Counted from the first letter of the stretch, positions 3,903 to 61,797 are shown. The stretch is DNA of 64,000 nt from Candidatus Woesearchaeota archaeon (GCA_964513145.1 CAZELK010000002.1:18413-82412); one strand, 5' to 3'. The notes: generated by a model not told the origin, from the sequence alone. Numbers and translations: made by a program.

Positions 3903-3918
3903 TAAAAAATTAAAGTTC

Positions 3919-3943
3919 TTCCGTTAATGCTTTTTCTAAAATG
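3919..3943. repeat. conserved ~25-nt motif immediately 3' of the CDC48 stop codon (copy 1)
   Basis: ttccgttaatgctttttctaaaatg. It shares a 16-nt identical core with 32522..32547. Both abut the stop codon of a minus-strand gene. Confidence 0.6.
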
Positions 3944-3944
3944 T

Positions 3945-9479
<5,535 letters not shown>

Positions 9480-12076: not shown

Positions 12077-12703
12077 ATGATAACAACAGGAATTAAAGAG
12101 TTAGACGATTTAATACAGGGTTATAAAGAAGAATTAAACCTCATCTACGGTCCTCCGGGTTCAGGAAAAACAACCTTATGTAAATTAGTGGCAATTAATT
12201 TGCTAAATAAAAACAAAAAAGTCATATATATTGATACTGAAAACGGCTTTTCATTAGAAAGATTTAGGCAATTATCAGATAATTATGAGAAAATATTGGA
12301 TAATTTAATTTTAATTAAAGTTAAAAGTTTTGAAGACCAGTGTATAAAAACAGAAAATTTAGTAGAAATAAAAAAAATAAGTCTTGTAATAATAGACTCA
12401 ATAGGTAAATTTTACAGAAGCGAAGTAAAGGAAGATCCAAAAGAAATAAATAAAAAATTCATTTCTAATTTAAATTCTTTAAGAACAATATCAAAAAATA
12501 ATATACCAATAATTATAACAAATCAAATCTATGCAGATTTTAATGACAATAATAAAGTAATACCCCTGGGTGGAAAAATAATCCAAAATTTCTGTAAAAA
12601 AATTATTGAATTAAAAATCTCTCCAAGAAGATTAATACAAAAAAAACCAGAAGAAAAAGAAATGCTGTTCGAAATAAATGAAAAAGGGATAATAAAAGTT
12701 TAG
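12077..12703 (+). CDS. radB: RadB-like RecA-family ATPase
   Basis: ITTGIKELDDLIQG...GPPGSGKTTLC Walker A; about 208 aa, typical of archaeal RadB. Confidence 0.7.
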   Translation: MITTGIKELDDLIQGYKEELNLIYGPPGSGKTTLCKLVAINLLNKNKKVIYIDTENGFSLERFRQLSDNYEKILDNLILIKVKSFEDQCIKTENLVEIKKISLVIIDSIGKFYRSEVKEDPKEINKKFISNLNSLRTISKNNIPIIITNQIYADFNDNNKVIPLGGKIIQNFCKKIIELKISPRRLIQKKPEEKEMLFEINEKGIIKV

Positions 12704-15024
12704 ACTTGTTTCTTTTTTCTTCCTATTTTTGATTTTTCTTTCATTTGCTCATCTTTATTTTTAGGAGTTTCTTTTTCTTCCGTAGTTTTTCCCTGATGAG
12801 TTTTATCTTCGTTTTTTGGTAAAGCTTCTGTCGTTTTTCCATGAAGGCTTTTGTCAAAAGGCTTGGCCCAAGCTTCTTTAGATTTGCAATTTGGTGTTAA
12901 GCATAATTTCCATGGTCTTTTTCCAGCCCTAATAACCAAAACTTGGTAAAAGTTGCATTCTTTGCATTTTTCTTCCAATTTTTTTATCAATCCATTTCTT
13001 GGTAAAGAATAAATGTTCTTACATTCTGGATAGCTTGAACATCCTACAAATTTGCTTTTTGTTTTGGGAGAATATAATATTTTCAGGTTTCCTTTCTCGC
13101 ATTTAGGGCATTGCCCAAGTGTATTAGTATCTTCTTCTGTTTTTCTTTGTGAGACTAATAATTCTTTTCCAATATCAGTTTCATGTTCTTTAAATTTATC
13201 AAAAATTTTAATTAAAGTTTCTTTGGCTTTTCCTAAAATTTCTTGCTCATCAGCTTTTCCTTCCCTTATTTTCTCCATTTCTTTTTCAAAATGTCTTGTC
13301 AATTTTTCATCAATAATTTCTTCAGAATATTTTTGCAAAGTATCGATTAATTTTATTCCCAATTCAGTTGCTTGAATAGAATTGTCTTTAATGTAATTTC
13401 TTTGATATAATGTATCCAAAATAGCTGCGCGAGTACTTTTTGTACCTAAAAATTTTTTATCAAGTTCTTTAATTATTGAAGCTTGTATATATCTTTTTGG
13501 TGGTTGTGTCTCTTTGTTTTCTATTTTAATTTCTTTAACTTTTACTTCTTCCATTTCTTTCAATTTAGGAAGTTCAACGTCCTTAGACAAAGCATATTTT
13601 CCATAATATTTTTGCCAGCCTTTTTCTAAAGTTATTGTTCCAGAAACAGAAAATAATTCGTTGTTTACATCAATATTTAAAGTATTAGTTTGTTTTTTAG
13701 CAGGTTCGCCAAAAGTGCTTAAGAATCTTCTGACAATTAAATCATATAATTTAAATCCTTTTCCATCCACTTTAGCAAATTCCCCAGTGGGATGCACGCT
13801 GGGATGGGCAGGATCAGATTTTTTTCCTTCATTTGGAATTAATACATTTTTATTCAACAATTCAGAACAAATTTCTTCATAATTATTGTTTTTCTTTAAT
13901 TTTTCAAATATTTTTTTAAAATTCAAAGCACTGGGCAGCTTTTGCGATGAAGTTCTGGGATAAGAAATATATCCATTTATATACAAATCTTGCGCAATAC
14001 TTAAAGTTTCTTTGGGAGATATATGTAAAGTCCTGTATGCTTCTACTTGTAAAGAAGTTAAATCAAATGGATAGGGTGGTTCTTGTAAAAACTCTCTTTT
14101 AGAAATTTTTTTAATAAATGCTTTATTTCCTTCAGTATTTTTTAAAATTGTTTCAGCTTCTTTCTTATCCCAAATATCTCCTTTAATATGCCCAGCAGTA
14201 AATTTATCTGATATTAAATTTACCAGCCAAAAGGGAACTGGTTTAAAATTTTGAATTTCCTTTTCTCTTTTTACAATTAAATTTAAGGCTGGCCCCTGAA
14301 CCCTTCCGCTTGACATTAATTTAAATGCTCCGGCGCTTTTTATTGCCAACGTCAAAGCTCTTGACATATTTATCCCCCATATCCAATCCATAATATGCCT
14401 AGTTTCACCTGAGTAAGCTAAAGGAAAATCAAGATGTTTTTTAACATTTTTATAACTATCAATTAAATCATCTTTTGTTAAAGTTGAGAACTCCATCCTC
14501 AACCCATCTTTTTTATTAAAAATATATCTTAAAATATTCCATCCAATAACTTCTCCCTCTAAATCCTTATCAGTAGCAACAATGAATTCATCAGCATCTT
14601 TACTTAATTCTTTTAGAAGATCAAAATATTTTTGTGTGTAAGCAGACTTTTTCTTAACCTTAAAACTTTCTCTCCATTCAACATCAAAAACAGGATACTT
14701 TGATCCTTCTTTCTTTTTTTCTGCTAAATTAAATAAATGTCCTACAGTACAACAGACAATAACTTTTTTTCCTTTTATTTGAATATTATAATAAGGCACT
14801 CCATCTTCTTTGTAAGCTGTTACTTTGCCGTCAGCTAAAGAATCTGCTATTTTCAAAGCTGCTGATGGTTTCTCGCATAAAATTAATTGTGTCATAAAAT
14901 GCCCAAATATAAGACATTTATTAAATTTTTGCTTAAAAGATTTTGTATAATTAACTAAGGCTAAGAAATTTGAGTAATCCAAAACCCCAAATTTTGGCAG
15001 TTTTAAATAAGAAAATTTTTCCAA
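12700..15024 (-). CDS. topA: DNA topoisomerase type IA (TopA/Topo III-like) with C-terminal Zn fingers
   Basis: Toprim (LILCEKPSAA), active-site Tyr motif GYISYPRTSS, and C-terminal CPKCEKG...CSSYPECKN. Confidence 0.85.
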   Translation of the reverse strand: MEKFSYLKLPKFGVLDYSNFLALVNYTKSFKQKFNKCLIFGHFMTQLILCEKPSAALKIADSLADGKVTAYKEDGVPYYNIQIKGKKVIVCCTVGHLFNLAEKKKEGSKYPVFDVEWRESFKVKKKSAYTQKYFDLLKELSKDADEFIVATDKDLEGEVIGWNILRYIFNKKDGLRMEFSTLTKDDLIDSYKNVKKHLDFPLAYSGETRHIMDWIWGINMSRALTLAIKSAGAFKLMSSGRVQGPALNLIVKREKEIQNFKPVPFWLVNLISDKFTAGHIKGDIWDKKEAETILKNTEGNKAFIKKISKREFLQEPPYPFDLTSLQVEAYRTLHISPKETLSIAQDLYINGYISYPRTSSQKLPSALNFKKIFEKLKKNNNYEEICSELLNKNVLIPNEGKKSDPAHPSVHPTGEFAKVDGKGFKLYDLIVRRFLSTFGEPAKKQTNTLNIDVNNELFSVSGTITLEKGWQKYYGKYALSKDVELPKLKEMEEVKVKEIKIENKETQPPKRYIQASIIKELDKKFLGTKSTRAAILDTLYQRNYIKDNSIQATELGIKLIDTLQKYSEEIIDEKLTRHFEKEMEKIREGKADEQEILGKAKETLIKIFDKFKEHETDIGKELLVSQRKTEEDTNTLGQCPKCEKGNLKILYSPKTKSKFVGCSSYPECKNIYSLPRNGLIKKLEEKCKECNFYQVLVIRAGKRPWKLCLTPNCKSKEAWAKPFDKSLHGKTTEALPKNEDKTHQGKTTEEKETPKNKDEQMKEKSKIGRKKKQV

Positions 15025-15127
15025 AAGAAGTTTTATTTATAAATCCTTAATTAACTTTACAGAGCCGCTTAAAATCTAAAATAGAATGTAGAAAGATTTA
15101 AAGGGTTCTTATTATTATTTTTAAATA

Positions 15128-15880
15128 ATGAAATCTAAAATTATGAATTCTTATGAGACTTTTGGAGAAATATATTATGAATCAAGAAAGAAAAAAAATG
15201 GAATAAGCTATTTTTACAATGAAAATCTTGAGATGCCTGCAACTTTAAAATTATTAGGTAATGTTAAGGGAAAGAAGATTCTGGATGTTGGCTGCGGTCC
15301 GGGAATTTACGCCAGGATTCTTACTGAAGCAGGAGCGTCTGTAAAAGGCATAGATTTCTCTAAAAAATTTATATCAATTGCAAAAAATGAAGCACCAAAA
15401 GCATTATTTACATTAGGGGATGCAGAAAAATTACCATACCAAAACAAAGAATTTGATATTGTTTTGTCAACATTAATGTTGGGCCATTTTGAAAATTGGG
15501 ATAATATATTTTCTGAAATAAAGAGAGTTCTGAAAAATAATTGTATTTTCATATTTTCAATAAAAAACCCAATTACTTCCAGCATGCAAAAAAGAAAATG
15601 GTTCTTTAGATCATTCAGGGAAGTTGTTGATTACTTTAATGAAAAATGGGTTTCGAATAAATGGAGAAGGGAAAATAGGGGAAATACCATAACATCTTAT
15701 GTGTCAGAACATCATAAAACATACAGCACTATAATCAAGACAATTATAAAAAATAGTTTTGAGATTATTGATTATGAAGATGCAAGGCCTTTGTTAAAAG
15801 CAAAAAATCTATTCCCAAAAGAATACAAAAGAACAATTAATATGCCACATTTTTGTATATGGAAACTTAGAAAGAAATAA
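15128..15880 (+). CDS. class I SAM-dependent methyltransferase
   Basis: Motif I ILDVGCGPGIYA; Methyltransf_11-like. Confidence 0.7.
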   Translation: MKSKIMNSYETFGEIYYESRKKKNGISYFYNENLEMPATLKLLGNVKGKKILDVGCGPGIYARILTEAGASVKGIDFSKKFISIAKNEAPKALFTLGDAEKLPYQNKEFDIVLSTLMLGHFENWDNIFSEIKRVLKNNCIFIFSIKNPITSSMQKRKWFFRSFREVVDYFNEKWVSNKWRRENRGNTITSYVSEHHKTYSTIIKTIIKNSFEIIDYEDARPLLKAKNLFPKEYKRTINMPHFCIWKLRKK

Positions 15881-15957
15881 ATTATCCTATTACTAAATTA
15901 CTATTTTTTGTAAAACTTCTTTTAGTCCTTGATTAAACTTTTTCTAAGGGTTTAAAA

Positions 15958-16076
15958 TGGGCCCGATCAGATTTGAACTGACGGCCGCTCGATTATCAGT
16001 CGAGTGCTCCAATTGTCCATACTTTTAGTTTTGCCAAAGCTTTTCCTAAAAGCTTTCCAGACTAAGCTACGGGCCC
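15958..16076 (-). tRNA. tRNA-Ile (anticodon GAU) with a ~45-nt insertion between D-loop/D-arm and anticodon stem
   Basis: Acceptor GGGCCCG/CGGGCCC; anticodon arm CTCGA-CTGATAA-TCGAG; T arm GTCAG-TTCAAAT-CTGAT. Gene is 119 nt versus about 74 mature. The insert contains the hairpin AAAGCTTTT-AGG-AAAAGCTTT. Confidence 0.7.
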
Positions 16077-16128
16077 ATAAAGGAAACACAATTATTTCAT
16101 TTATTAAATTTTGCATATAAAAATTGAT

Positions 16129-16512
16129 TTAAAAATCAGTTAATTTAGAAAGTCTTCCTGAAACTTTGCCAGTAAAATACCTTGAGTCTTTTGGGATAAG
16201 GGGCACATAAACAGGATCTAGCTCTATTCCTAAATATCTGGCTTTGGTATAAATATGGCCTAGAGCATAGCAATAAGAATCACGTACAATTTTATTAGCT
16301 TGCCTGAAAACAGCGATTTCACAAATTAAATCTTCAACAAATCCCCGCATTTTTTGCTCTATATTATTCATCTTCCTATTAACAGATAATTTAGCAAGAT
16401 CATACCTTCCTTCAGTCTTATGTTTAGTAATTTGAAATGATTTAGATTGTTTCAATTTTGTAACTAAATCATCTATTGAAGTTATCCTTGATTTAAGTTC
16501 TTTTTTATCCAT
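16129..16512 (-). CDS. hypothetical protein
   Basis: 127 aa ORF, no recognisable motif. Confidence 0.35.
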   Translation of the reverse strand: MDKKELKSRITSIDDLVTKLKQSKSFQITKHKTEGRYDLAKLSVNRKMNNIEQKMRGFVEDLICEIAVFRQANKIVRDSYCYALGHIYTKARYLGIELDPVYVPLIPKDSRYFTGKVSGRLSKLTDF

Positions 16513-16538
16513 AAACCCAATATAAAAAAGAAAGGCTT

Positions 16539-16700
16539 TTAATCCTTCCTTTTTTTCGTTCTAAAAGCCCTTATTAAATCATCAGGGCATCTGGTTGTTT
16601 TATAGCAATTAGGGCAGATTAAGATAGGGTTATCAGCATCAAACTTATAAGGTCCCATAAAATTGTGGCATCCACATTTACATGTAAATTCATATTCCAT
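16539..16700 (-). CDS. small Zn-ribbon protein (53 aa), not in ORF track
   Basis: MEYEFTCKCGCHNFMGPYKFDADNPILICPNCYKTTRCPDDLIRAFRTKKRKD; multiple Cys pairs. Confidence 0.3.
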   Translation of the reverse strand: MEYEFTCKCGCHNFMGPYKFDADNPILICPNCYKTTRCPDDLIRAFRTKKRKD

Positions 16701-16854
16701 TATTAATAAAAATCAAACTAATTATTTAAAGAAAAGCTGTATAAATTAATACTTTATTTTCTAAAAAATACAGATGCATATATTTTTGTTAAAAACTTTC
16801 AAAATAAAATTTTGTACTACTATTAAATTATTACTTCTACTATTTATAAATACC

Positions 16855-16889
16855 ACTGGACAAAACCTACTGGACAAGACAAAGACCTG
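16855..16889. repeat. right copy (reverse complement) of the 35-bp inverted repeat
   Basis: actggacaaaacctactggacaagacaaagacctg is the exact reverse complement of 11242..11276. Confidence 0.9.
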
Positions 16890-16946
16890 CCTAGCACTTT
16901 TAAAGTAAATTATCTTTTTACAATATAAGAAAAAGTTAAAAACATT

Positions 16947-17192
16947 TTGTCAAACTTTTTCAAAAAAATCGGAGGTACTAAAATGATAATGCAATTATTA
17001 AGCAAAAAAGAAGACAAATACATGAGTTGGGAAGAGTATAAAAAAAGGATGATAGAAATGCAGGTAATACATCTTATAGAGCAGTTCATCAAACAAGATT
17101 CAAGTTATAGTTATGATGATCTAGAAAATTTAGACATAGCAAGATTTAAACAAATTGGGGGTGTTAAAAATGCAGGGAATATATTCGAATGA
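16947..17192 (+). CDS. hypothetical protein; the first ATG is at 16983 and the track start at 16947 is TTG
   Basis: 81 aa ORF with the 35-bp repeat in its upstream region, in the same orientation as for the Cas4-like gene. Confidence 0.35.
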   Translation: MSNFFKKIGGTKMIMQLLSKKEDKYMSWEEYKKRMIEMQVIHLIEQFIKQDSSYSYDDLENLDIARFKQIGGVKNAGNIFE

Positions 17193-24356: not shown

Positions 24357-27300
24357 CTAAATCTTGCTAATAAATCCAACTTTGGGCTGGAATATTTCTC
24401 CTTCCCTTTTCATTTTTTCAAGAACTTCATCTATAACACTTTCTTCCAAGCCTTTCTCCCTGCACACGCTGATTATATCGTTAACAGGAATAGTCTTAAT
24501 TCCATTTTTATCAAATTCATAAATAACTTCTCTTACTACAATTATTTTATTTCTTTGGCTTGTTGTAATTCCAGTAGCAAGAACATCAACATCAAGTTTT
24601 CCTGTTTGTGGGTCAATTCCAACTTGATATAAACATTTTTTCAAAATTCTGATTGCTCTTTTTGCATCGTCCTTTGTTATTTTATTGCTTAATCTTATTT
24701 TAGCAGAAGCCTCACTTAATCTTATCAAAGCTTCTAATTGTCTAGCACTAATTGGTATTGGTTTTACATCATCCTTACTGCTGCCAGAATTTCTAATACT
24801 AACATAAAAATTTCTAATTTCATCTTTTGCAACATCGCTCAATTTTGGAAAGACTTTATTTTTAGCATATGAAACATATTTTCTTAATAAACTTGGCTCT
24901 ATATCTGGTTCCATATTTCCTGTATTTCCATGAACATCTAAAATATGTGTAGCTATTTTAGCATCTAATTTTTCATCAGGTATATCTCTCATAGGAAAAA
25001 TTAAATCAAATCTATTAATCAAAGCAGGGGGTAAATTAATTTGTGCGGCAATTGGCTGATAAGGATCAAATCTTCCTAATTTTGGATTTGCAGCAGCTAA
25101 AGCGCTGACTCTTGTTAACAAAGTAGCTTGAATATTTGCTTTGCTAAAACTAATTTGCTGTTGTTCTAAACCTTCGTGCAAAGCGCTGGTATCATCTTCA
25201 TCCATTTTATCAAGTTCATCTAAAAAGATTGCTCCACCATTTGCTAAAGCCATTGCTCCGCCTTCCAAAGCCCATCCTTTTAAAAATTCATCTTTGACTA
25301 TTGCACCAGTCAATCCCGCAGCCGAAGCTGACTTACCAGAAACATATCTTGCTTTTGGTGCAACTTTAGACATATACATAAGTAAAGAAGAATTATGACA
25401 ATAAAAATTATTAGCAACAAAATTATGAACTTTATCAACAGTTAAATCATAAACAAATTCTTCTTCAGATTTTATTTTTTCTACAGATTGAATTTTATCC
25501 CAAAATATACTTGAGTAAGCTAAATAGTATAAACGAAGTATTCCTTGTTTCAAAGCAAAATCATTAACTATTCCTTTTATTAAACTTAAAAGAGATTCAT
25601 TAATATATGATTGTTGTACTGGCCTAATTTTTTCTAACTCATAATGTGAAATTAAAGTTTGGGAACAATTAACAGAATTCGCTAAAGTTGCTTGACTAGT
25701 GTATAGATCTTCTCTTAAGCTTTTTGAATCAAATTCTTGTTTTTTTAAAACTGAAATCAAATAAGAATATCGTTCACTTACAGCAGTTAAGATTTTTCTT
25801 AAAGAATTTCTCGAAGGATTTCTATCTCCTCTTTCAAAATGTTGGTAAGTGGTTCTAGGAATACCAAATTCAAACTGAGTTAATTTTAATTTTTTTCTTA
25901 CTGATTTAAGAATTTTAGGTAATCCAGGTATAACATCAATATTAGTATTATAAGTTTGATCAGGATTATTTATTGAATTAATCAATTTTCTTTGTTTTTC
26001 AGAAGAATTAAAACCTATCTTACTAGAATATTTTAAAACTTCTTTTCCAGATACAGTTAAAATCCAATAAGGTCTTTTTATTTTGGCTTTTGTATTAGTG
26101 GCACAGGCTATAGTTTTATGAGTTTGTGAAATAATATTAAACCTTAATAATAAAGTCTTTAAATCATAAATTAAATCCTTACTAGCAGAAGAAACTTTTA
26201 CCTCTCTTTTATCTTCCACAACAGTAGCTTCACCGTCAAAATAACTTTTTAAAAACTCTTTAACAATTGAGTTTGGAGATTTTTGAATTATTTTTGGTAC
26301 TTGTTTATGTTTAGCTCTCATAATTAAGCTAGGTTCTATTTTCTCAAAAAATCTTAAAAACTCAATTGATGAAACATCTAATTCAGAAGCAATTTTTCCT
26401 TTTCTAGGTTTTTTAAATCTAGGTTCAATATTAAAAATTTTTTTTACTAAGAAACTATAATCATCTAATAAAATTTTATCTTCATTAGTGAAAGCAGTTC
26501 GTCCAGTAGTTTCTTCATAATTCATATAAGTTTCTGAAGTTAAATATCCTAATAATCTTGCTAATTCAGGACTGCAAAATTTAGGAATTTTAATATGTGT
26601 ACCATTATGAGCTGAAGTTCTCTCTATATCAAAATCTATTTTTTGAAATTCTGTATTAAGTTTTAGATTTCTGGGGCTTGCAATAAAATCTCCTTTTTTT
26701 AATTCTTCACTTCTTTTAGAAAAAACAATTCCATTTTCAGTTAAAAACATCGGGTGTGTTGGAGAAACAGTAATCTCATTGCCAGTCTCAGTTATTATTT
26801 TATATAAAAATTCAGGAGCTTTTCTTTTCCAAACAGCATTGCATAAACCAGTATAATTTCTATAATCAAATCCTAAAGAAGATAAAGAAAAATTAGTTTT
26901 ATTAAAAACTCCATCATCACATTTCTCAAAATTATTTAAATTTTCATCAACTAAATATTTTATTTCTTTAATTGAACCATCTTTTAAAATAACTTTCGTA
27001 TCTCCTTTTACACACTTGGATGATCCTGGATCACCTACCAATAAAATATGTATATCTCCCCTGTTCCATGTGCCGTCTTTTCTTTCCTTCCTTACTCCAC
27101 CCATTAATTGCAATGATAAGGCTTCTTTAATATCAGCATGACCGTAAATTGATGGAGCAATACTTCCAATAAATTTATCATAAATTTTTGGATTCTTGCT
27201 TAAGGAAATAATTTTTTCTTCCTCTTCTTTGTCAATTATAAGCTCTTCAAAAGTTTCTTCAAGAGGTTCAATAAAATTAGAGTCCATCATCAAATCATAT

Positions 27301-28007
27301 TTTGTGCTTGCAGCTCCAGTTCTTAGTAAAATAGGAACTTCTTTTACAACTCCATTTACTCGTACTTTGCTTCCTGGGGTGGTTTTTCTTTCCATTATAG
27401 GCTCAACTAAATCTTCCTTTAAAAATATACTGAGTCTTTTTGGCTGTTCACCGCCTTGCAAACTATCAGGGCTTTCTTCAAGAACAAGTCTTTGTGCATC
27501 AACTAATTCTTTGCTCAATAATCTGAATCTCCCTTTTTTTCCACAAGTACATCTATAGGGTTCTTTAAATTTAGCATCTAATTGTAAAATAGAAATTGAA
27601 TTTCCACAACTAGGGCATTCAAACTTTGCGCTTGTAACTTGTGGTCTTACATCCGAAGCTTGTCTTACTATCCCTTCAATAATTAAAAATTGTCCTAAGT
27701 GTTCGCTTCTTACATCTTTAATTTTTATTTTTTGGTTTACAGGCAAATTAAAAAATCTAATTCTTAAATACCTGTCAATTTCAAAATTTTCTAATGATAA
27801 CTCAAAAGCCTTGATAGTTTCTTCAGGCTCATCCAATAATTGGTCAGCCAATTGGTGATCGTATTCTGCAAGCTTGGAGAAATCAATAAGTAAAAATTTT
27901 TTTCCAGTTAAAATAGCCTGGTTAATTTGATCTCTATAATTCTGATCTATAAAATCATTAAACTTCTCTACTTGCTCAATAACATCATTCACCAAATCTT
28001 CCCCCAA
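24357..28007 (-). CDS. mcm: MCM replicative helicase with an intein in the Walker A P-loop
   Basis: N-terminal Zn finger (CPSCG...CTCG) and AAA+ core. GDPGSSK-[intein]-SSLLMY..., arginine finger, C-terminal winged helix. Confidence 0.9.
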   Translation of the reverse strand: MGEDLVNDVIEQVEKFNDFIDQNYRDQINQAILTGKKFLLIDFSKLAEYDHQLADQLLDEPEETIKAFELSLENFEIDRYLRIRFFNLPVNQKIKIKDVRSEHLGQFLIIEGIVRQASDVRPQVTSAKFECPSCGNSISILQLDAKFKEPYRCTCGKKGRFRLLSKELVDAQRLVLEESPDSLQGGEQPKRLSIFLKEDLVEPIMERKTTPGSKVRVNGVVKEVPILLRTGAASTKYDLMMDSNFIEPLEETFEELIIDKEEEEKIISLSKNPKIYDKFIGSIAPSIYGHADIKEALSLQLMGGVRKERKDGTWNRGDIHILLVGDPGSSKCVKGDTKVILKDGSIKEIKYLVDENLNNFEKCDDGVFNKTNFSLSSLGFDYRNYTGLCNAVWKRKAPEFLYKIITETGNEITVSPTHPMFLTENGIVFSKRSEELKKGDFIASPRNLKLNTEFQKIDFDIERTSAHNGTHIKIPKFCSPELARLLGYLTSETYMNYEETTGRTAFTNEDKILLDDYSFLVKKIFNIEPRFKKPRKGKIASELDVSSIEFLRFFEKIEPSLIMRAKHKQVPKIIQKSPNSIVKEFLKSYFDGEATVVEDKREVKVSSASKDLIYDLKTLLLRFNIISQTHKTIACATNTKAKIKRPYWILTVSGKEVLKYSSKIGFNSSEKQRKLINSINNPDQTYNTNIDVIPGLPKILKSVRKKLKLTQFEFGIPRTTYQHFERGDRNPSRNSLRKILTAVSERYSYLISVLKKQEFDSKSLREDLYTSQATLANSVNCSQTLISHYELEKIRPVQQSYINESLLSLIKGIVNDFALKQGILRLYYLAYSSIFWDKIQSVEKIKSEEEFVYDLTVDKVHNFVANNFYCHNSSLLMYMSKVAPKARYVSGKSASAAGLTGAIVKDEFLKGWALEGGAMALANGGAIFLDELDKMDEDDTSALHEGLEQQQISFSKANIQATLLTRVSALAAANPKLGRFDPYQPIAAQINLPPALINRFDLIFPMRDIPDEKLDAKIATHILDVHGNTGNMEPDIEPSLLRKYVSYAKNKVFPKLSDVAKDEIRNFYVSIRNSGSSKDDVKPIPISARQLEALIRLSEASAKIRLSNKITKDDAKRAIRILKKCLYQVGIDPQTGKLDVDVLATGITTSQRNKIIVVREVIYEFDKNGIKTIPVNDIISVCREKGLEESVIDEVLEKMKREGEIFQPKVGFISKI
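25392..27014 (-). mobile_element. MCM P-loop intein (aa 332-872, 541 aa) with HTH and LAGLIDADG homing endonuclease
   Basis: Starts CVKGDTKVIL and ends NNFYCHN, followed by SSLL. Contains LARLLGYLTSETY (LAGLIDADG) and an HTH (LKLTQFEFGIPRTTYQHFERG). Confidence 0.8.
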
Positions 28008-31579: not shown

Positions 31580-31687
31580 CTATTTATTGATAACTTAATA
31601 TATTAATAAAGTTTTCTTTCAAAATTGATTTTGTTTATTGTAAGTTTTTGACTAGACTTGAAACATTTTCTTTTGAAGAAAAGCTTA

Positions 31688-31811
31688 TGGGCCCGGAGTG
31701 ATTTGAACACCCGACATATACGGCTTCAGCGTATTGCTCTCCTTAGCCACTCTTCTTAGTTTTTTTGATTAAACTTTTTTCTAAAAAGTTTACAGGCTGA
31801 GCTACGGGCCC
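31688..31811 (-). tRNA. tRNA-Phe (anticodon GAA) with a ~50-nt intron in the D-loop
   Basis: Acceptor GGGCCCG/CGGGCCC; anticodon arm ATACG-CTGAAGC-CGTAT (G37 present); T arm GGGTG-TTCAAAT-CACTC. The D-arm GCTC-AGCCTG[insert]GGA-GAGC is interrupted. The insert carries the hairpin AAACTTTTT-AGA-AAAAAGTTT. Confidence 0.7.
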
Positions 31812-32432: not shown

Positions 32433-32521
32433 TCTAAAGGTATTCCCTGTAGTATAATCAATTTTAGTTCTCCATGATAGCTTTTTTAAGATTATTATTT
32501 AATTAATTTTTTAGTGAAGTT

Positions 32522-32547
32522 TTCCGTTAATGCTTTTCGCAAAATGG
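32522..32547. repeat. conserved ~25-nt motif immediately 3' of a minus-strand stop codon (copy 2)
   Basis: ttccgttaatgcttttcgcaaaatgg. A 16-nt identical core is shared with 3919..3943, in the same position relative to the stop codon. Confidence 0.6.
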
Positions 32548-35947: not shown

Positions 35948-35988
35948 AAACTTTTTTTAAAAGTTTCATCAAAAGCGAGATGTAGATT

Positions 35989-41682: not shown

Positions 41683-44292
41683 ATGGACTTAAAAACAAAA
41701 CAAAAATTAAAGAAATTTATAGCAAACTTGTCAATAGTCAGGGGAAGGCATACTGAGTTGGTTTCTGTTTATGTTCCAGCTGGATACGATTTAAATAAAA
41801 TTATTAATCATTTGCAGCAGGAGCAGGGAACAGCATCCAACATAAAAGATGCAAGAACAAGGGCAAATGTAACAGATAGTCTGGAAAGAATGATCAAGCA
41901 CCTAAGATTATTTAAAAGAACTCCTGAAAACGGCTTGGCTGTATTTGCCGGTGATATTTCTCAGGCAGAAAATAAAATTGATATTCAAGTTTTTAGTATT
42001 GAACCGCCAGAGCCATTAAAAGTAAAAATTTACAGGTGCGATCAGACATTTTATTTAGATTTAATTAAAGACATGATGGAGCATAAAGAAGTTTACGGTC
42101 TTATAACTATGGACAAAAGAGAATGCAGCATTGGTTATTTACAAGGCACTTACATAAAATTAGCACATAATTTAACATCTGGTGTTCCTGGGAAAATGCG
42201 TGCCGGAGGGCAGTGCTTATTACCAGACACACTAATACAATCTGCGGAAGGCGATATTTTTGAAATTGAAAAAAGTCACAATCCTCATGTTTTAGTTGGC
42301 TGTGAAATAGATAAATTATCAGCTAAGAATACGCCAATCACAGATAAATGGAATACTAAAAAAAATACAATTTACAAAATAATAACAAAATATCCAAGAA
42401 TAGAATTAGAATGTTCAAAAGATCACGTATTTTTTGTGAGAGAAGATAAATTAGTTGAAAAAGCAGCTGAAGAACTTAAAGAAGGCGATTTTTTAATAAT
42501 GCCTGAACAAATTAATATTAAAGGTAAAGAAATCCACTTTAATCCAATAAAATATTATAATATACTTTATTTAACAAAAGAAGGTAGAGATTTAATTAAG
42601 AATTTAAGAGAAGAAAAGAAACTATATCAAAAGCAATTAGCAAAAGAAATAGGTGTAACTCAAACAGCAATTTCAATAATCGAATTAGGCAAAGAAGGAA
42701 TAAGAGCTAATTTCTTGCAAAGATTATGTCAAAAATTACAGATTAATTTTGAGGAATTTATAAATAATTATACTTCTCATAAATCAACTATAAAACTTCC
42801 AGAGAGATTAGATGAGAAACTTGCACAAATTACTGGATATTTTTTAGGTGATGGAAACTATGAAGAAGAAAGAATCTGTTTTTCAGAAGAAAGAAAAGAC
42901 GTTGCAGAATATTATAGTAATTTATTAAAAAATTACTTTCGTGCAAAGGTCAGTTTAAAATATAGAGAGAAAAAGCATTATTGGTTAATAAGAGCCAACG
43001 GAAAACCAATAGTGAGATTTTTAAAAAATGAATTTCCAGAATTAAGAAATAATGATATAAATACAATTCCAAAGAAAATACTTGAATCAGATAATAAAAT
43101 AGTTGCTGCTTTTTTAAATGGTCTTTTTGACGCCGAAGGGTATCCAAGTTCTTCTCGATCAGTCAGCCTTGGGATGAATAATAAAAGATTAATTCAACAA
43201 CTACAAATGCTTTTGTTAAGATTTAGCATAATTTCCTCATTTATTGAAAATGATAATAAACATAATCCTTATACTAAAAATCATTGTTTTATTGTAGATA
43301 TTACAGAAAAAGAGTCAATAAAATTATTCAAGGAGAATATCGGTTTTACAGCTATAGGAAAATGTAAAAATCTAAATGAAATAATAAACCTAAGAAAAAA
43401 CAAAAAAGAATTAAGTAGAGTAAGAAGAATTTTGATGTCTGGGAAAAAAGTTCGAGAGATTATAGAAGAGTTCGGTTATAATATAGAATTATTCCCTAAA
43501 GTTTCAGGATTTTTTATTGATAAAAGAATGATAAGCAAAAAAGTGTTCTATAAATCAATTTTAAAAGAAGTAGAAAATAAAGATAAAAAATTATATAATA
43601 AATTATTTGAAATTTACAAAGCGAATATTCTCCCAGTTAAAATTAAATCAATAGAAGTAACAAATAAATCAGTAAAAATGGTTGATATCTCAACGCAACA
43701 AGGTAATTTTATAGCAAATTGTTTAATAGTCCATAACTCTGCAAATCGTTTCGCAAGATTAAGGGAAGAAGCTGCTAAAGAATTTTATAACAGAATAAGT
43801 GAAATTGTAAATAAAGAATTTTTGGGCAGACAAGAAATAAAAGGAATTATAATAGGTGGTCCAGGCCATACAAAGGAAGAGTTGCTAGAGTATCTAAATA
43901 ATGAAATCAGGAAAAAAGTAATTGGCACTAAGGATATTACTTACACAGATGAATCTGGTCTTCATGATTTAGTTGAAAAATCTCAAGATATTTTAGCAAA
44001 TGAAATTGTTATGCAGGAAAAGGCATTGATGGCTCGATTCTTCGATACCTTAGGAAAAACTCCAAATAAAATTGTTTATGGTATAAACGAAGTTAGACAT
44101 GCCCTGGAATTATCTGCAGTCGACATAGTTCTTGCTAGTGAAGATTTAGATGATAAAACAATCGAGGAATTAGAAGAATCATGTATAAAAAGTGGCTGTA
44201 AGCTTCAGATAATATCTGTTGATACAAGGGAAGGAAAACAATTGAAAGATCTTGGTAGTGTTGGGGCTATTTTAAGATATGAGATTCAATAA
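41683..44292 (+). CDS. prf1: peptide chain release factor aRF1 (eRF1 homolog) interrupted by an intein right after the GGQ motif
   Basis: NIKD/NIKS-like motif (ASNIKD) and GKMRAGGQ. The extein resumes SANRFARLREEAAKEF. Domain 3 is intact. Confidence 0.9.
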   Translation: MDLKTKQKLKKFIANLSIVRGRHTELVSVYVPAGYDLNKIINHLQQEQGTASNIKDARTRANVTDSLERMIKHLRLFKRTPENGLAVFAGDISQAENKIDIQVFSIEPPEPLKVKIYRCDQTFYLDLIKDMMEHKEVYGLITMDKRECSIGYLQGTYIKLAHNLTSGVPGKMRAGGQCLLPDTLIQSAEGDIFEIEKSHNPHVLVGCEIDKLSAKNTPITDKWNTKKNTIYKIITKYPRIELECSKDHVFFVREDKLVEKAAEELKEGDFLIMPEQINIKGKEIHFNPIKYYNILYLTKEGRDLIKNLREEKKLYQKQLAKEIGVTQTAISIIELGKEGIRANFLQRLCQKLQINFEEFINNYTSHKSTIKLPERLDEKLAQITGYFLGDGNYEEERICFSEERKDVAEYYSNLLKNYFRAKVSLKYREKKHYWLIRANGKPIVRFLKNEFPELRNNDINTIPKKILESDNKIVAAFLNGLFDAEGYPSSSRSVSLGMNNKRLIQQLQMLLLRFSIISSFIENDNKHNPYTKNHCFIVDITEKESIKLFKENIGFTAIGKCKNLNEIINLRKNKKELSRVRRILMSGKKVREIIEEFGYNIELFPKVSGFFIDKRMISKKVFYKSILKEVENKDKKLYNKLFEIYKANILPVKIKSIEVTNKSVKMVDISTQQGNFIANCLIVHNSANRFARLREEAAKEFYNRISEIVNKEFLGRQEIKGIIIGGPGHTKEELLEYLNNEIRKKVIGTKDITYTDESGLHDLVEKSQDILANEIVMQEKALMARFFDTLGKTPNKIVYGINEVRHALELSAVDIVLASEDLDDKTIEELEESCIKSGCKLQIISVDTREGKQLKDLGSVGAILRYEIQ
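42214..43737 (+). mobile_element. aRF1 intein (aa 178-685, 508 aa) with HTH and LAGLIDADG homing endonuclease
   Basis: Starts CLLPDTLIQ and ends CLIVHN, followed by SANRF. LAGLIDADG motifs (LAQITGYFLGDGNYEE, AAFLNGLFDAEGYPS) and an HTH (LYQKQLAKEIGVTQTAISIIELGKEG). Confidence 0.8.
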
Positions 44293-54833: not shown

Positions 54834-54982
54834 ATCTCCAAAAAAATTATTTTCTTATTTAAATATTATTATAAAACAAAATAGAAATAAATATGTAACC
54901 AATTAAAGACAAAAGTTTCCTAAAAATAATAATTTAATTTTCTCAAAAAGCTACCAGTTTTGCTTAAGCTTTTTTTGAAAGC

Positions 54983-56884
54983 TTATCTTAATCGAATAGC
55001 TTCTAAATTCTTGGGAGATAATGTTTCTAGTTTAGTTAATTTATGCAAAGTAGAAGCTAATTCAAGACATTTTGAACTTTCACCATGACACATAACAAGC
55101 TTTTTTGGTCTTGGTTCCAAATTATTTACAAAATTAATTAATTGTGTTCTGTTGCTGTGCCCTGAAAATCCATGGATAACATGAACATCCATTTTAACTT
55201 CTAAAACTTCTTGTTTATTGCCATTCATAAAAGTAATCTGTCTTTCTCCATCTTCAAGCCTTCTGCCTATAGACCCTGGTCCTTGATAACAAGTCATTAC
55301 TATTGAATTTTTTGCATTGTCTGCTAGCATTTTGAAATATTCTAAAGACGCGCCGCCAGTCAACATTCCTGAAGTTGCTAAAATAACACATGGTCCTTTT
55401 TCTTCTACAACTTCCTGCATTTCTTTTCTTGACCCTACTCTTATAAACATATCAGATAAAAATGGATTTTGATCCTTGTGATAAATTAATTTTCTCACTT
55501 TGGAATTAAAAAAATCTGGATATGCTGTATGTATAGCAGTAATGTCCCAAACCAAACCCTGAACATACACTGGTATTTTTGGTAAAGTTCCTTCTCTAAC
55601 TAGTTTGTCTAAAATAACCATAATTTCTTGTGATCTTCCAGAACCTAAAACAGGAACTAAAACCTTTCCATTTCTTTCTAAAGTTTTTTTGATTATGTCA
55701 GTAAAAAATAATTCACATTCTCTTCTTGTTGGTGGCGTATCATTTTTCCCACCATAAGTAGCTTCCATTATGACAGTTTCTAGTCTTGGAAACCTTGTGT
55801 TTGCTGCTGAAAGCAAGTTGGAATTTTCATACAAAAAGTCGCCTGTATAGGCCAGGTTGTGTAAACCGTTGCCAATATGCAAATGACAAATAGCGCTTCC
55901 TAATTTGTGTCCAGCATCATAAAAAGTTAATCTGACATCTGGAGTAATATCGCTAACTTCTCCATAGTCTAAACATATTGTATGCATCACCATTTCTTTT
56001 ATATCTGAGGAAGAATAAATTGCCTTGTTTGCTTCTTTTTGTGCAATACTTATTAAATCCAAACATAGTAATGCAGCTATGTCTCTTGTTGGCATAGTCA
56101 TAAAAGATGGTCCTTTAAATCCCATTTTATATAAGTAAGGTAAAAAAGCAACATGGTCGACATGCGAATGGGAAATTATTACAGCATCAAGTTCCTCTAT
56201 TTTAAATTCAGGTGCTTCAAGTAATGGAAACATTTCTTCATTTGATTGTGCAGCAACATTTATTCCACAATCAAGTAATATTTTTGATTCCGGGGTTTGT
56301 AAAAATAAGCAGCTTCTTCCAACTTGTCTTCCTGCACCTAAAAAAGTTACTCTGACCCATTCGTCTACTCTTCCTTTTGTCCATCCGCCGTAAATTCTTT
56401 TTCCAACTTTGTTCAAGAATTTTTTCCTGTATTCAGAATTTTCAAATAAAGCATAATTAATAGTTTCAATTAATTTTGATCTTATTGGGGGTGTTCTTCT
56501 GACAATAGGTATCCAAAAAGTTTGTTTTCTTATCTCTCTTAGTACTTCCCCTTGTTTTCCTATAGCAATTCCAGGTTTTTCAACTTCTAAAGTGACTAAA
56601 GATCTTTGATTATCAAATAATAAATTTACTTCGCCAGCGTCTTTTGGTATTATTTCTTTTATTGTTTTTTCAGCTTTTTCAATATCCATTGTAATAGCAG
56701 GGTCTGGTCTTAATTCAACTCTTTTTTTTATAGTGTCAACTATAGTTTTTATAGTACCATTATTGTTCAAGAAAAAATCCTTGTCTTTTGTGTACAAAAC
56801 TATGTTTGCTCCTTCAAAACAAGAATCACTAATCTTAGAGCTATCTGGTATCAGCTTCATTATTTCTTCTAATATGTCTGGCAT
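54983..56884 (-). CDS. aCPSF1 (beta-CASP/metallo-beta-lactamase RNase with N-terminal KH domains)
   Basis: Two KH domains, HSHVDHV MBL motif, beta-CASP; 633 aa. Confidence 0.9.
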   Translation of the reverse strand: MPDILEEIMKLIPDSSKISDSCFEGANIVLYTKDKDFFLNNNGTIKTIVDTIKKRVELRPDPAITMDIEKAEKTIKEIIPKDAGEVNLLFDNQRSLVTLEVEKPGIAIGKQGEVLREIRKQTFWIPIVRRTPPIRSKLIETINYALFENSEYRKKFLNKVGKRIYGGWTKGRVDEWVRVTFLGAGRQVGRSCLFLQTPESKILLDCGINVAAQSNEEMFPLLEAPEFKIEELDAVIISHSHVDHVAFLPYLYKMGFKGPSFMTMPTRDIAALLCLDLISIAQKEANKAIYSSSDIKEMVMHTICLDYGEVSDITPDVRLTFYDAGHKLGSAICHLHIGNGLHNLAYTGDFLYENSNLLSAANTRFPRLETVIMEATYGGKNDTPPTRRECELFFTDIIKKTLERNGKVLVPVLGSGRSQEIMVILDKLVREGTLPKIPVYVQGLVWDITAIHTAYPDFFNSKVRKLIYHKDQNPFLSDMFIRVGSRKEMQEVVEEKGPCVILATSGMLTGGASLEYFKMLADNAKNSIVMTCYQGPGSIGRRLEDGERQITFMNGNKQEVLEVKMDVHVIHGFSGHSNRTQLINFVNNLEPRPKKLVMCHGESSKCLELASTLHKLTKLETLSPKNLEAIRLR

Positions 56885-60998: not shown

Positions 60999-61156
60999 TG
61001 CGCTGGCCGAGGTTTGAAATCCCGAAACTTCTTTTAGTCTTTGATTAAACTTTTTTGAAAAGTTTGCTCGGGTCAGAGCCTCTTTACTCGCTTTTGATTA
61101 AACTTTTTCAAAAGTTTATTGGCAAGGCCCAATACTAACCACTATACTACCAGCGC
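60999..61156 (-). tRNA. tRNA-Gly (anticodon GCC) with two introns: a canonical 37/38 intron (38 nt) and a T-arm intron (48 nt)
   Basis: Acceptor GCGCTGG/CCAGCGC. Anticodon arm GGGCC-TTGCCAA-[38 nt]-GGCTC. T arm CCGAG-[48 nt]-TTCAAAC-CTCGG. 158 nt total versus 72 mature. Both inserts carry the AAACTTTT-N3-AAAAAGTTTAATCAAA element. Confidence 0.6.
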
Positions 61157-61663: not shown

Positions 61664-61797
61664 TGGGCCGAGAAGGATTTTCATTGCTTCTAGTTTTGTT
61701 TAAGCTTTTCTAAAAGCTTAATTTGAACCTTCGATCTAGACGGTGTAAACGTCTTGTCATTTGCAGAGTTAAAACTTAGCCACTAGACCACCGGCCC
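61664..61797 (-). tRNA. tRNA-Val (anticodon UAC) with two insertions: 17 nt in the D-stem and 44 nt at the T-loop/T-stem junction
   Basis: Acceptor GGGCCGG/TCGGCCC. D arm GTCT-AGTGGCTA-AG[17 nt]AC. Anticodon arm AGACG-TTTACAC-CGTCT. T arm GAAGG-TTCAAAT-[44 nt]-CCTTC. The 44-nt insert carries AAGCTTTT-AGA-AAAGCTT. Confidence 0.55.

Follow-up and report, generated by a model that had tools for sequence, protein, structure and literature searches.

In a 64,000-nt stretch from a Candidatus Woesearchaeota archaeon (GCA_964513145.1, CAZELK010000002.1:18413-82412; called the window in the following), a tRNA-Ile gene is interrupted by a short insert, and a related sequence lies behind the same gene. 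This arrangement raises the question of whether the insert is an intron, and whether the free-standing sequence is an escaped intron and evidence that such elements move, as the initial annotation proposed.

Four Interrupted tRNA Genes in the Window

The window has a G+C content of about 28% and encodes archaeal housekeeping proteins, namely topoisomerase VI A and B, MCM, Cdc48, aRF1, TBP, aIF1A, PCNA, TFS, a proteasome subunit, an archaeal CCA-adding enzyme and FttA/aCPSF1. Among the fetched loci, Woesearchaeota assemblies are its nearest relatives: locus L062 is 80% identical over window positions 3937-5870, and L073 shows about 74% identity over the topA gene and 83% over the tRNA-Ile locus.

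ARAGORN reported no tRNA in the window in default mode, and nothing when introns were allowed at the default score threshold. At a lowered threshold it returned 98 calls, which were mostly spurious and were not used for discovery. Rfam gave one partial match above threshold in the window (tRNA-Phe) and one below; the tRNA-Ile locus is matched only in part (24.5 bits, 15966-16018). Default ARAGORN and the Rfam tRNA model at gathering score leave all four tRNA genes of the window unannotated. The genes were found by a search for T-arms with acceptor stems, followed by inspection of G+C-rich islands. All four are interrupted and lie on the minus strand, and they contain six introns in total (Table 1).

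Brute-force splicing combined with ARAGORN alone proved too permissive, yielding hundreds of junctions; the junctions were set instead by the 4-bp helix rule together with intron-less homologs. According to the archaeal rule, exon 1 ends with one 4-nt strand of the helix plus two bulge bases, and the complementary strand, likewise followed by two bulge bases, forms the end of the intron. After splicing, all four tRNAs form standard cloverleaves in ARAGORN at default settings. Strict bulge-helix-bulge motifs are present in the tRNA-Phe intron and in intron 2 of tRNA-Gly. Five of the introns carry a common hairpin module, and these are located at 18/19 (Phe), 19/20 (Ile), 37/38 and 53/54 (Gly) and 59/60 (Val).

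Table 1. Interrupted tRNA genes, their introns and the copies of the hairpin module in the window (positions counted from its first nucleotide).
Feature	Position	Strand	Description and basis
tRNA-Ile(GAT)	15958-16076	-	one intron, no encoded CCA; acceptor/T-arm script, spliced cloverleaf in ARAGORN
tRNA-Ile exon 1	16057-16076	-	tRNA positions 1-19, end ...AGUCUGG; helix GUCU/GGAC, junction match to L135
tRNA-Ile intron	16013-16056	-	44 nt, AAAGCTTTTAGGAAAAGCTTTGGCAAAACTAAAAGTATGGACAA; D-loop, between G19 and U20
tRNA-Ile exon 2	15958-16012	-	start UUGGAGC; intron-less homologs, ARAGORN
Hairpin module in tRNA-Ile intron	16030-16055	-	AAGCUUUU-AGG-AAAAGCUU-UGG-CAAA; relaxed pattern scan, conservation in L073
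Likely TATA box of tRNA-Ile	16101-16108	-	TTTAATAA, 24 nt upstream of +1; sequence only
TTTT spacer	15954-15957	-	between discriminator A and solo copy; read from the sequence
Trailer solo copy	15913-15953	-	41 nt, after TTTT behind the tRNA-Ile discriminator A
tRNA-Phe(GAA)	31688-31811	-	
tRNA-Phe intron	31743-31792	-	50 nt, D-loop 18/19, module inside; motif AGCC UG|U ... GGCU AA|G
tRNA-Gly(GCC)	60999-61156	-	
tRNA-Gly intron 1	61082-61119	-	38 nt, canonical 37/38, module inside; tail CAAAAGCGAG
tRNA-Gly intron 2	61019-61066	-	48 nt, 53/54, module inside; motif CCCG AG|C ... CGGG AU|U
tRNA-Val(UAC)	61664-61797	-	
tRNA-Val intron 1		-	17 nt, D-loop
tRNA-Val intron 2	61678-61721	-	44 nt, T-loop 59/60, module inside
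aCPSF1 solo copy	54948-54985	-	first three bases are the TAA stop of FttA/aCPSF1; profile E=1.3e-4
Radical-SAM solo copy	35948-35979	+	starts 1 nt past the TAG stop of a B12/radical-SAM gene; E=1.2e-3; tail CAAAAGCGAG

The Insert in tRNA-Ile Is an Intron of the D-Loop

The initial annotation described an insert of about 45 nt between the D-arm and the anticodon stem. The insert is indeed an intron, one nucleotide shorter than stated, and its site is in the D-loop. Its boundary, by which GCTT pairs with AAGC to close the D-arm and the intron sits at 25/26, was rejected, as a 4-bp helix could be formed in none of the three sliding registers. The suggestion that the insert occupies the same D-loop site as the one in tRNA-Phe was correct for the loop, but the two sites are one nucleotide apart.

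The minimum-energy structure of the tRNA-Ile precursor computed by RNAfold (-38.2 kcal/mol, z=-2.1) contains the central 4-bp helix GUCU/GGAC, with one G·U pair, and an inner intron helix of 8 bp (GCUUUUAG/CUAAAAGU). In this fold, the 3′ splice site is in an unpaired stretch and the 5′ splice site in a 5x2 internal loop preceding the inner helix. Because of this geometry at both splice sites, we classify the motif, GUCU GG|A ... GGAC AA|U, as a relaxed rather than a strict bulge-helix-bulge. ARAGORN, run at default settings, recognizes the 75-nt splicing product as tRNA-Ile(gat). The D-arm of this product, GCTTAGTCTGGTTGGAGC, is identical to that of an intron-less tRNA-Ile gene in L135; the D-arms of two further intron-less genes (L132, L133) have one extra T. 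The junction is fixed by the central helix in the fold, the product called by ARAGORN and the D-arm match to L135 taken together.

Syntenic orthologs of the gene, also next to topA, are found in L073 and the identical L120. The same site is occupied by an intron in them (GTCT GG|T ... GGAC TA|T), and their variable region contains a second, unrelated intron. Comparing the intron in the window with that in L073, 16 stem bases and CAAAAC are unchanged and 12 of the 22 remaining positions differ. The hairpin of these orthologous introns looks constrained, which suggests either function or homogenization and weighs against the repeat reading favored below. An anticodon-arm scan of metagenomes provided 21 loci; in L124, L131 and L134, longer unrelated introns occupy the same D-loop site of tRNA-Ile. 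The spacing of the likely TATA box of tRNA-Ile is also seen at the other three tRNA genes and at many ORFs of the window.

Broad-specificity splicing endonucleases cut non-canonical introns and accept relaxed forms of the bulge-helix-bulge. Neither a splicing endonuclease nor RtcB is encoded in the 64-kb window, and neither the C box RUGAUGA nor the D box CUGA occurs in the tRNA-Ile intron or the copy behind the gene. Rfam gave no match to a C/D box sRNA either, the type of RNA known from tRNA-Trp introns and tRNA-sRNA dicistrons. From the fold, the spliced product and the homologous genes, we conclude that the insert is a real archaeal bulge-helix-bulge intron of a known kind, which is presumably spliced in vivo. 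A splicing endonuclease and an RNA ligase would remove it via the relaxed motif. Its body consists of a single module copy, i.e., a 9-bp A/U hairpin, three variable bases and CAAAA, and the tail CUAAAAGU pairs back onto the 5′ arm, whereby the intron is closed and the splice sites are presented.

Increased disruption of tRNA genes in DPANN archaea, including Woese- and Pacearchaeota, has been reported before (PMC5829648). The introns in the window resemble the non-canonical tRNA introns of Thermoproteales, ARMAN/Micrarchaeota and other DPANN in their 4-bp central helix with bulges or loops, in their location outside 37/38, in the presence of several introns per gene (two each in tRNA-Gly and tRNA-Val) and in the canonical cloverleaf obtained after splicing. 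They differ from the described introns in sharing a conserved hairpin core; in the literature searched, we found no description of such a core in DPANN introns or in intergenic repeats. The intron itself is ordinary for DPANN, and the hairpin module is the more interesting result.

The Copy Behind tRNA-Ile Cannot Be Spliced

A solo copy is present in the 3′ trailer of tRNA-Ile as initially described, although its extent differs from the proposed 15921-15957 and four T residues separate it from the discriminator base (Table 1). Oligo-T is the kind of sequence which ends archaeal transcripts, and the TTTT spacer may act as a terminator. The closest relative of the copy is intron 2 of tRNA-Gly (61025-61065), with 36 of 41 positions identical. 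This is 88% rather than the roughly 85% first reported, and it exceeds the random background, in which the best of 200 first-order Markov random windows reached 31/41 (mean 27.1). A profile built solely from the five intron copies found the trailer copy at E=0.006.

Since the trailer copy lacks the exon-complementary segment, it cannot be spliced. A bulge-helix-bulge is impossible there, as ATGG would be needed after GTTT and TACA is present; the copy was rejected as a spliceable intron for want of a central helix. On the strand of the tRNA, its hairpin is degenerate, with two C·A mismatches caused by two stem substitutions, and the region does not fold (z=+0.95). The plus strand forms a 10-bp hairpin with two G·U pairs.

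We also considered that the copy could belong to an overlooked split or permuted tRNA half. Besides tRNA-Ile, no tRNA-like match was obtained with Rfam in 15000-17000 at E up to 10. The flanks are A/T-rich without any exon-like block, and there is neither adjacent tRNA exon sequence nor an exon-complementary segment, so this candidate was discarded and the copy does lie outside any tRNA, as had been claimed. In L073 the copy is absent and the start codon of topA follows 17 nt after tRNA-Ile, whereas in the window tRNA-Ile and topA are separated by the trailer copy and by an opposite-strand methyltransferase gene (15128-15880). The trailer copy is a true member of the module family and not an escaped intron.

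A Family of Short Hairpin Modules

The unit common to all copies is about 31 nt long and reads U-AAR CUUUU-loop-AAAAG YUU-NNN-CAAAA. Intron copies add a tail, (C/U)AAAAG, which pairs with the 5′ arm and closes the intron, and their 5′ splice site is always 1-3 nt before the hairpin. Besides the five intron copies, the window contains three solo copies, all of them directly behind gene 3′ ends and all detected by the five-intron profile (E=0.006 to 1e-4). Two tail subfamilies can be distinguished, and both mix intron and solo copies: ACUAAAAG is found in the introns of tRNA-Phe and tRNA-Ile, in the second introns of tRNA-Gly and tRNA-Val and in the trailer and aCPSF1 copies, and CAAAAGCGAG in intron 1 of tRNA-Gly and in the radical-SAM copy. 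No part of the module is covered by Rfam (window at gathering score and at E up to 10; 18 loci at gathering score).

A perfect 8-bp complement is present upstream of 100 of 119 tail-anchored sites, and the stem variants covary (AAAC/GTTT, AAGC/GCTT, AACC/GGTT). An attempt to distinguish RNA from DNA pairing by an asymmetry of G·U and A·C mismatches was abandoned, as too few mismatches exist with so many perfect stems.

The module could be an archaeal promoter cassette, with AAAAG as BRE and TTTAATCA as TATA box, possibly preceded by an oligo-T terminator; the introns would then be relics of fused split tRNAs or would contain internal promoters. Indeed, AAAAAGTTTAATCA resembles promoters of the window (AAAGGTTTATAAAT or AAAAAGGTTTAAATA) located about 21-25 nt before an ATG or the +1 of a tRNA. 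In the tRNA-Phe intron and in intron 2 of tRNA-Gly, exactly 23 nt lie between the end of the TATA-like octamer and the 3′ splice site, and the module in Aminicenantes supplies a -35-like hexamer, TTGAAA, upstream of GATAAT. Nevertheless, the TATA-like part varies in the AAGC subfamily (CTTTGG, CTTGAG, CTTAAG) while hairpin and CAAAA are conserved, the octamer itself has the variants TTTAATCA, CTTTGGCA and CTTGAGCA, and it can be anywhere between 11 and 23 nt away from the 3′ splice site. Verified start codons can be as close as 8-13 nt behind the module (in L029, those of rpS4 and rpS13, with the rpS4 ATG at 13 nt), downstream starts show no peak at leaderless spacing, and where an uninterrupted tRNA gene lies near a copy, it has another TATA box at a shorter distance (L066, L127, L128). 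A transcript starting near the 3′ splice site would also be without the leader needed for trans-splicing; the idea of an internal promoter in a cis-split tRNA was dropped, as its predicted start falls at or inside exon 2 and leaves no such leader. We give the promoter explanation very little credence.

The Module Occurs in Several Archaeal Phyla and in Giant Viruses

Data with one genome per species were scanned with the exact pattern AAACTTTT-N1-6-AAAAGTTTAATCAA. In genomes it matched at more than 115 loci, and about 75 of the matches listed are archaeal; as loci were fetched by this exact pattern, counts are biased towards the AAAC/GTTT...AATCAA variant. Among the matches listed, archaeal hits are mostly from DPANN (Woese-, Pace-, Micr-, Aenigm-, Nano-, Alti- and Iainarchaeota), and some come from assemblies of methanogens or ANME. 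Multi-copy families of the module were detected in Clostridia and in one Aminicenantes genome. A viral collection contributed 84 loci matching the exact pattern, several of which are true giant-virus contigs, as they encode a major capsid protein, an mRNA capping enzyme or a ribonucleotide reductase.

Two composition-matched control patterns, one with C and G of the stem swapped and one with a permuted tail, had no match at all. A relaxed pattern matched 162 times versus zero times in shuffled sequences. Conservation extends beyond the exact pattern, with T at -1 in 90% of the copies and AA after the tail in 96-100%. The module is one highly specific sequence that recurs in several archaeal phyla and in giant viruses.

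Solo Copies Abut Gene Ends

Positions were evaluated for 101 relaxed-pattern copies from archaeal loci and the window. Solo copies are the majority, with about 68 versus about 29 intron copies. They occur in either orientation behind stop codons or tRNA 3′ ends. For the 68 archaeal solo copies, 23 of 58 facing gene ends are at most 5 nt away, compared to 3 of 50 gene starts, and at the close gene ends the first three bases of the palindrome are usually the stop codon. In the viral loci, gene ends lie at -8 to +14 nt of the module on either side, and no start is closer than 26 nt. Copies inside ORFs of at least 80 aa are few (6 of 74 archaeal non-tRNA copies, 1 of 70 viral copies). Tandem arrays were found in L019, L029, L107, L156 and L200.

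At least 28 of the 101 copies are inside tRNA genes. In a splice-and-scan analysis treating both strands alike, 18 of the copies inside tRNAs were in sense and none in antisense orientation. One further copy interrupts a 16S rRNA gene (L099), where it is flanked by GTGG CG|T ... CCAC AA|A.

These data bear on the initial view of the free copy as a rare escaped intron, and on its generalization, according to which bulge-helix-bulge introns transpose as in Thermoproteales and solo copies stem from excised introns that were inserted ectopically or are dead. Five similar introns at five positions of four non-orthologous tRNAs would be expected in this case, the strict sense orientation in tRNAs is what an RNA-mediated route predicts, and both the tail subfamilies, each common to an intron and a solo copy, and the copy in the 16S rRNA intron agree with it. 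However, there are more solo than intron copies, and the solo copies are linked to stop codons, in every case stop where the module stops and show no excess of bulge-helix-bulge motifs: candidates were found for 18 of the 101 copies, of which about 8 are true introns, which is approximately chance level. Giant viruses and bacteria contain copies as well, and splicing of bulge-helix-bulge introns is not expected in either; no reverse transcriptase is encoded in the 64-kb window. Finally, the 3′ segment complementary to the exon is specific to each site and absent from solo copies and, consequently, the spliceable unit is not what is copied. Rather, the copied unit is the hairpin module. We consider transposition of entire introns improbable, and the free copy is not a rare escapee.

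The association with gene ends points to the main rival of the reading we favor below, namely that the module is a functional 3′-end signal, i.e., a terminator, processing signal or end-protecting hairpin, kept behind stop codons by selection. In that case, the trailer copy would terminate tRNA-Ile and perhaps also the convergent methyltransferase gene, and in the introns a stable hairpin would have been put to secondary use as the core of the fold. Gene ends but not gene starts abut the hairpin in archaea and viruses, the palindrome offers stop codons on both strands (TAA at the 5′ edge; TGA and TAA in the antisense tail), and in L114 a copy is placed between convergent genes with a spacer of about 30 nt. 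The 10-bp hairpin kept by the trailer copy on the plus strand is the 3′ flank of the ORF 15128-15880. Strong sequence specificity and wide conservation are in line with a signal as well, and hairpin-dependent formation of mRNA 3′ ends is established for Mimiviridae (PMC4402537).

On the other hand, only about 5% of the genes in the window carry the module, and orthologous genes in relatives do without it. An end of transcription within the many tRNA genes and the 16S rRNA gene that contain copies would be harmful. Divergent spacers contain copies about as often as convergent ones (4 vs. 6 in archaea, 13 vs. 13 in viruses), and relative to flanking co-directional genes the tail may point either way (sense vs. 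antisense: 20 vs. 11 in archaea, 16 vs. 27 in viruses). As RNA, the A/U hairpins are weak (-3 to -9 kcal/mol, with z-scores mostly not significant), and no U-tract follows the hairpin on the sense strand. Taken together, we regard a 3′-end signal as possible, if on the unlikely side.

The similarity to Mimiviridae concerns the "hairpin rule", by which A/T-rich palindromes are found just downstream of stop codons and can be shared by convergent genes; the module itself is located at gene ends in contigs encoding a giant-virus major capsid protein and capping enzyme. The palindromes of Mimivirus differ from gene to gene, whereas here one specific sequence recurs at many genes of many genomes. 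In addition, archaea use a different machinery for ending transcripts.

Gain and Loss of Modules

Orthologous sites in relatives are often without the module. Besides the trailer copy missing in L073, the aCPSF1 orthologs of L060, L068 and L018 lack the copy behind that gene. Two viral contigs with 96% identical flanks, L204 and L203, differ by exactly one module. In Aminicenantes, the module is part of a larger repeat in 16 of 18 copies and absent from two, and a direct repeat, AACTTTT, bounds the difference. An indel of about 34 nt, corresponding to a sister element, separates the window from L062. A search for empty sites returned mostly differences in tandem copy number, and a few clean indels were kept; the indels are flanked by short direct repeats and could be slippage deletions instead of insertions, which speaks against a duplicating repeat. 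The initial proposal that the elements move or are copied holds insofar as modules are gained and lost, but the trailer copy does not prove intron transposition.

We tentatively read the module as a duplicating, non-autonomous, REP-like palindrome of gene ends, which also forms the core of the tRNA introns in this lineage; in our judgment this is the best-fitting reading, at somewhat less than an even chance of being correct. It fits best because of the patchy presence, the single-module indels, the tandem arrays, the subfamilies and the tolerance of copies only in non-coding or spliced-out RNA. Against it stand the 18:0 sense orientation in tRNA genes and the 5′ splice site fixed at 1-3 nt from the hairpin, neither of which would be predicted by random insertion into pre-existing introns. 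The module would have spread by copying at the DNA level and would persist where extra RNA is tolerated or removed, namely in 3′ flanks, in spacers between genes and in spliced introns. Most tRNA introns of this lineage would have come to use it as their structural core.

Like bacterial REP/BIME sequences, the modules are short extragenic palindromes (20-40 nt) that often follow stop codons, with both orientations and tandem clusters occurring; they are non-autonomous and vary in copy number between relatives. Unlike REP sequences, module stems are almost always perfect, copies are present inside spliced tRNA and rRNA introns, and the sequence is common to several domains rather than species-specific. 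A further difference to REP/RAYT systems also counts against the REP-like reading: no RAYT-like or IS200/IS605-like transposase gene was found near module copies (8-kb pieces per genome), no protein family, transposase included, recurs among 375 ORFs near copies in these pieces, and the 64-kb window encodes no transposase. Furthermore, 31 nt is very short for a mobile element, and it is difficult to see how the exact sequence could be conserved in archaeal phyla, giant viruses and some bacteria unless a conserved trans-acting factor or a function were involved.

Possible Implications for the Origin of Archaeal tRNA Introns

Near-identical introns at different positions of unrelated tRNAs within one genome have been described for Thermoproteales (Fujishima et al. 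2010), and intron gain was inferred at the DNA level by an unknown mechanism, as summarized in two later reports (PMC4090602, PMC10714607). The introns of the window share with this transposing family the high similarity of introns at different positions of non-orthologous tRNAs. In contrast, the repeated unit here is only the module of about 31 nt, located mostly outside tRNA genes at gene 3′ ends. About two thirds of its copies are solo and not bounded by splice motifs, and it is common to archaeal phyla, giant viruses and some bacteria.

A broader proposal is that the palindrome of about 31 nt, U-AAACUUUU-loop-AAAAGUUU-AAUCAAAA, is one cross-domain element of DPANN, giant viruses, virophage-like contigs and some Clostridia and Aminicenantes, spread by a trans-acting factor which lands at gene ends. 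The tRNA and rRNA introns of DPANN would be born from copies landing in RNA genes, rescued by a broad-specificity splicing endonuclease. In this full form the proposal seems distinctly unlikely to us. If true, it would give a concrete origin for archaeal non-canonical introns, whose mode of origin has been described as unknown (PMC4090602).

If the module is a functional 3′-end signal, it would be a sequence-defined end-of-gene signal of archaea that eukaryotic viruses share. If, however, it is a mobile gene-end element, it would offer a testable route to the origin of the non-canonical introns of archaea.

The hairpin module in rRNA and tRNA genes

The hairpin module on which tRNA introns of the window are built was also found in a ribosomal RNA gene. 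The 16S rRNA gene of L099, a locus fetched from another genome, measures 1810 nt versus the 1478 positions of the model and, therefore, carries insertions, one of which is a 41-nt bulge-helix-bulge intron on the same module (splice motif GTGG CG|T...CCAC AA|A). Among the six tRNA introns of the window, only the 17-nt intron of tRNA-Val (AAGTTTTAACTCTGCAA) lacks the module and is unrelated to the hairpin family. The trailer of tRNA-Phe starts with TAAGCTTTTCTTCAAAAG, which, judged by its sequence, looks like the decayed 5′ part of a module with its CTTTT...AAAAG hairpin. In another fetched locus, L127, the tRNA-Ile 3′ end (...GAATCCACGGCAGGCCCA) is repeated about 130–190 nt downstream of the intact tRNA-Ile gene; this duplicate is the kind of orphan fragment that an element integrating into the tRNA gene leaves.

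Coordinates of the features discussed
Feature	Location	Strand
16S rRNA gene	L099:875-2684	-
tRNA-Val D-loop intron	window 61761-61777	-
tRNA-Phe trailer	window 31650-31687	-
Cdc48, intein-bearing	window 3945-9479	-
MCM, intein-bearing	window 24357-28007	-
aRF1, intein-bearing	window 41683-44292	+
Genes compared with L073:1667-1760	window 12700-15024; 15128-15880	-; +
Second-family element, Cdc48 end	window 3915-3946	-
Second-family element, TYW1-like end	window 32519-32547	-
Tandem modules	L029:2794-2870	
Single module	L029:3431-3456	
24-mer, Aminicenantes DAOWCY01	L010, L032, L051, L056, L059, L071, L077, L083, L096	
24-mer, Acutalibacteraceae/Ruminococcus	L004, L012, L028, L034, L050, among others	
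Viral modules, examples	L189:2896-2962; L156:3871-4039; L200:7770-7857	

Gene neighborhoods and other elements of the window

In L073, a Woesearchaeota relative, 17 nt separate tRNA-Ile from the topA start, whereas the distance is about 1 kb in the window, where the gap includes a class I methyltransferase gene on the opposite strand. The 44-aa N-terminal extension of the long topA ORF, beginning at a TTG, is probably spurious. A second family of small elements, ATTTT-NNG-AAAAGCATTAACGGAARAAC, was observed immediately 3′ of the Cdc48 and TYW1-like stop codons; at the orthologous Cdc48 gene end of another relative (L062), which reads TAAAC|TTTTTATT, the ~34-nt element is absent. The intein load is heavy for 64 kb: LAGLIDADG homing-endonuclease domains occur in the inteins of Cdc48, MCM and aRF1, and Cdc48 contains three stretches of intein domain (Pfam).

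The module in other archaea, bacteria and viruses

Five loci of ANME, Methanosarcinales and Halobacteriota assemblies (L033, L039, L042, L080, L090), whose genomes are G+C-richer, share the conserved extension AAAYGCTYCGCAG after the module, which suggests, at the sequence level, that a larger repeat in these genomes has the module at one of its ends. In L029, two modules stand in tandem upstream of rpS13, and the interval from rpS13 to rpS4 holds a single module whose end is 13 nt upstream of the rpS4 start codon; thus, the module can occur within a ribosomal-protein gene cluster.

In Aminicenantes and Acutalibacteraceae/Ruminococcus loci, the module's 24-mer is part of larger dispersed repeats with G+C-rich hairpins, which in Clostridia are located at contig ends, around ordinary chromosomal genes. 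It is present in 16 of the 18 Aminicenantes repeat units and missing from two, with an AACTTTT direct repeat at the boundary; the units also hold AATCAAAAGCG / AAAAGCGAG, resembling the tail of intron 1 of the window's tRNA-Gly.

Exact matches to the 24–28-nt tRNA-intron motif were detected in 84 viral loci of IMG/VR (L138-L221), frequently in tandem, and two composition-matched control patterns gave zero matches. Some of the motif-bearing contigs encode a giant-virus major capsid protein, capping enzyme and ribonucleotide reductase. The motif sequence is common to DPANN archaea and eukaryotic giant viruses.
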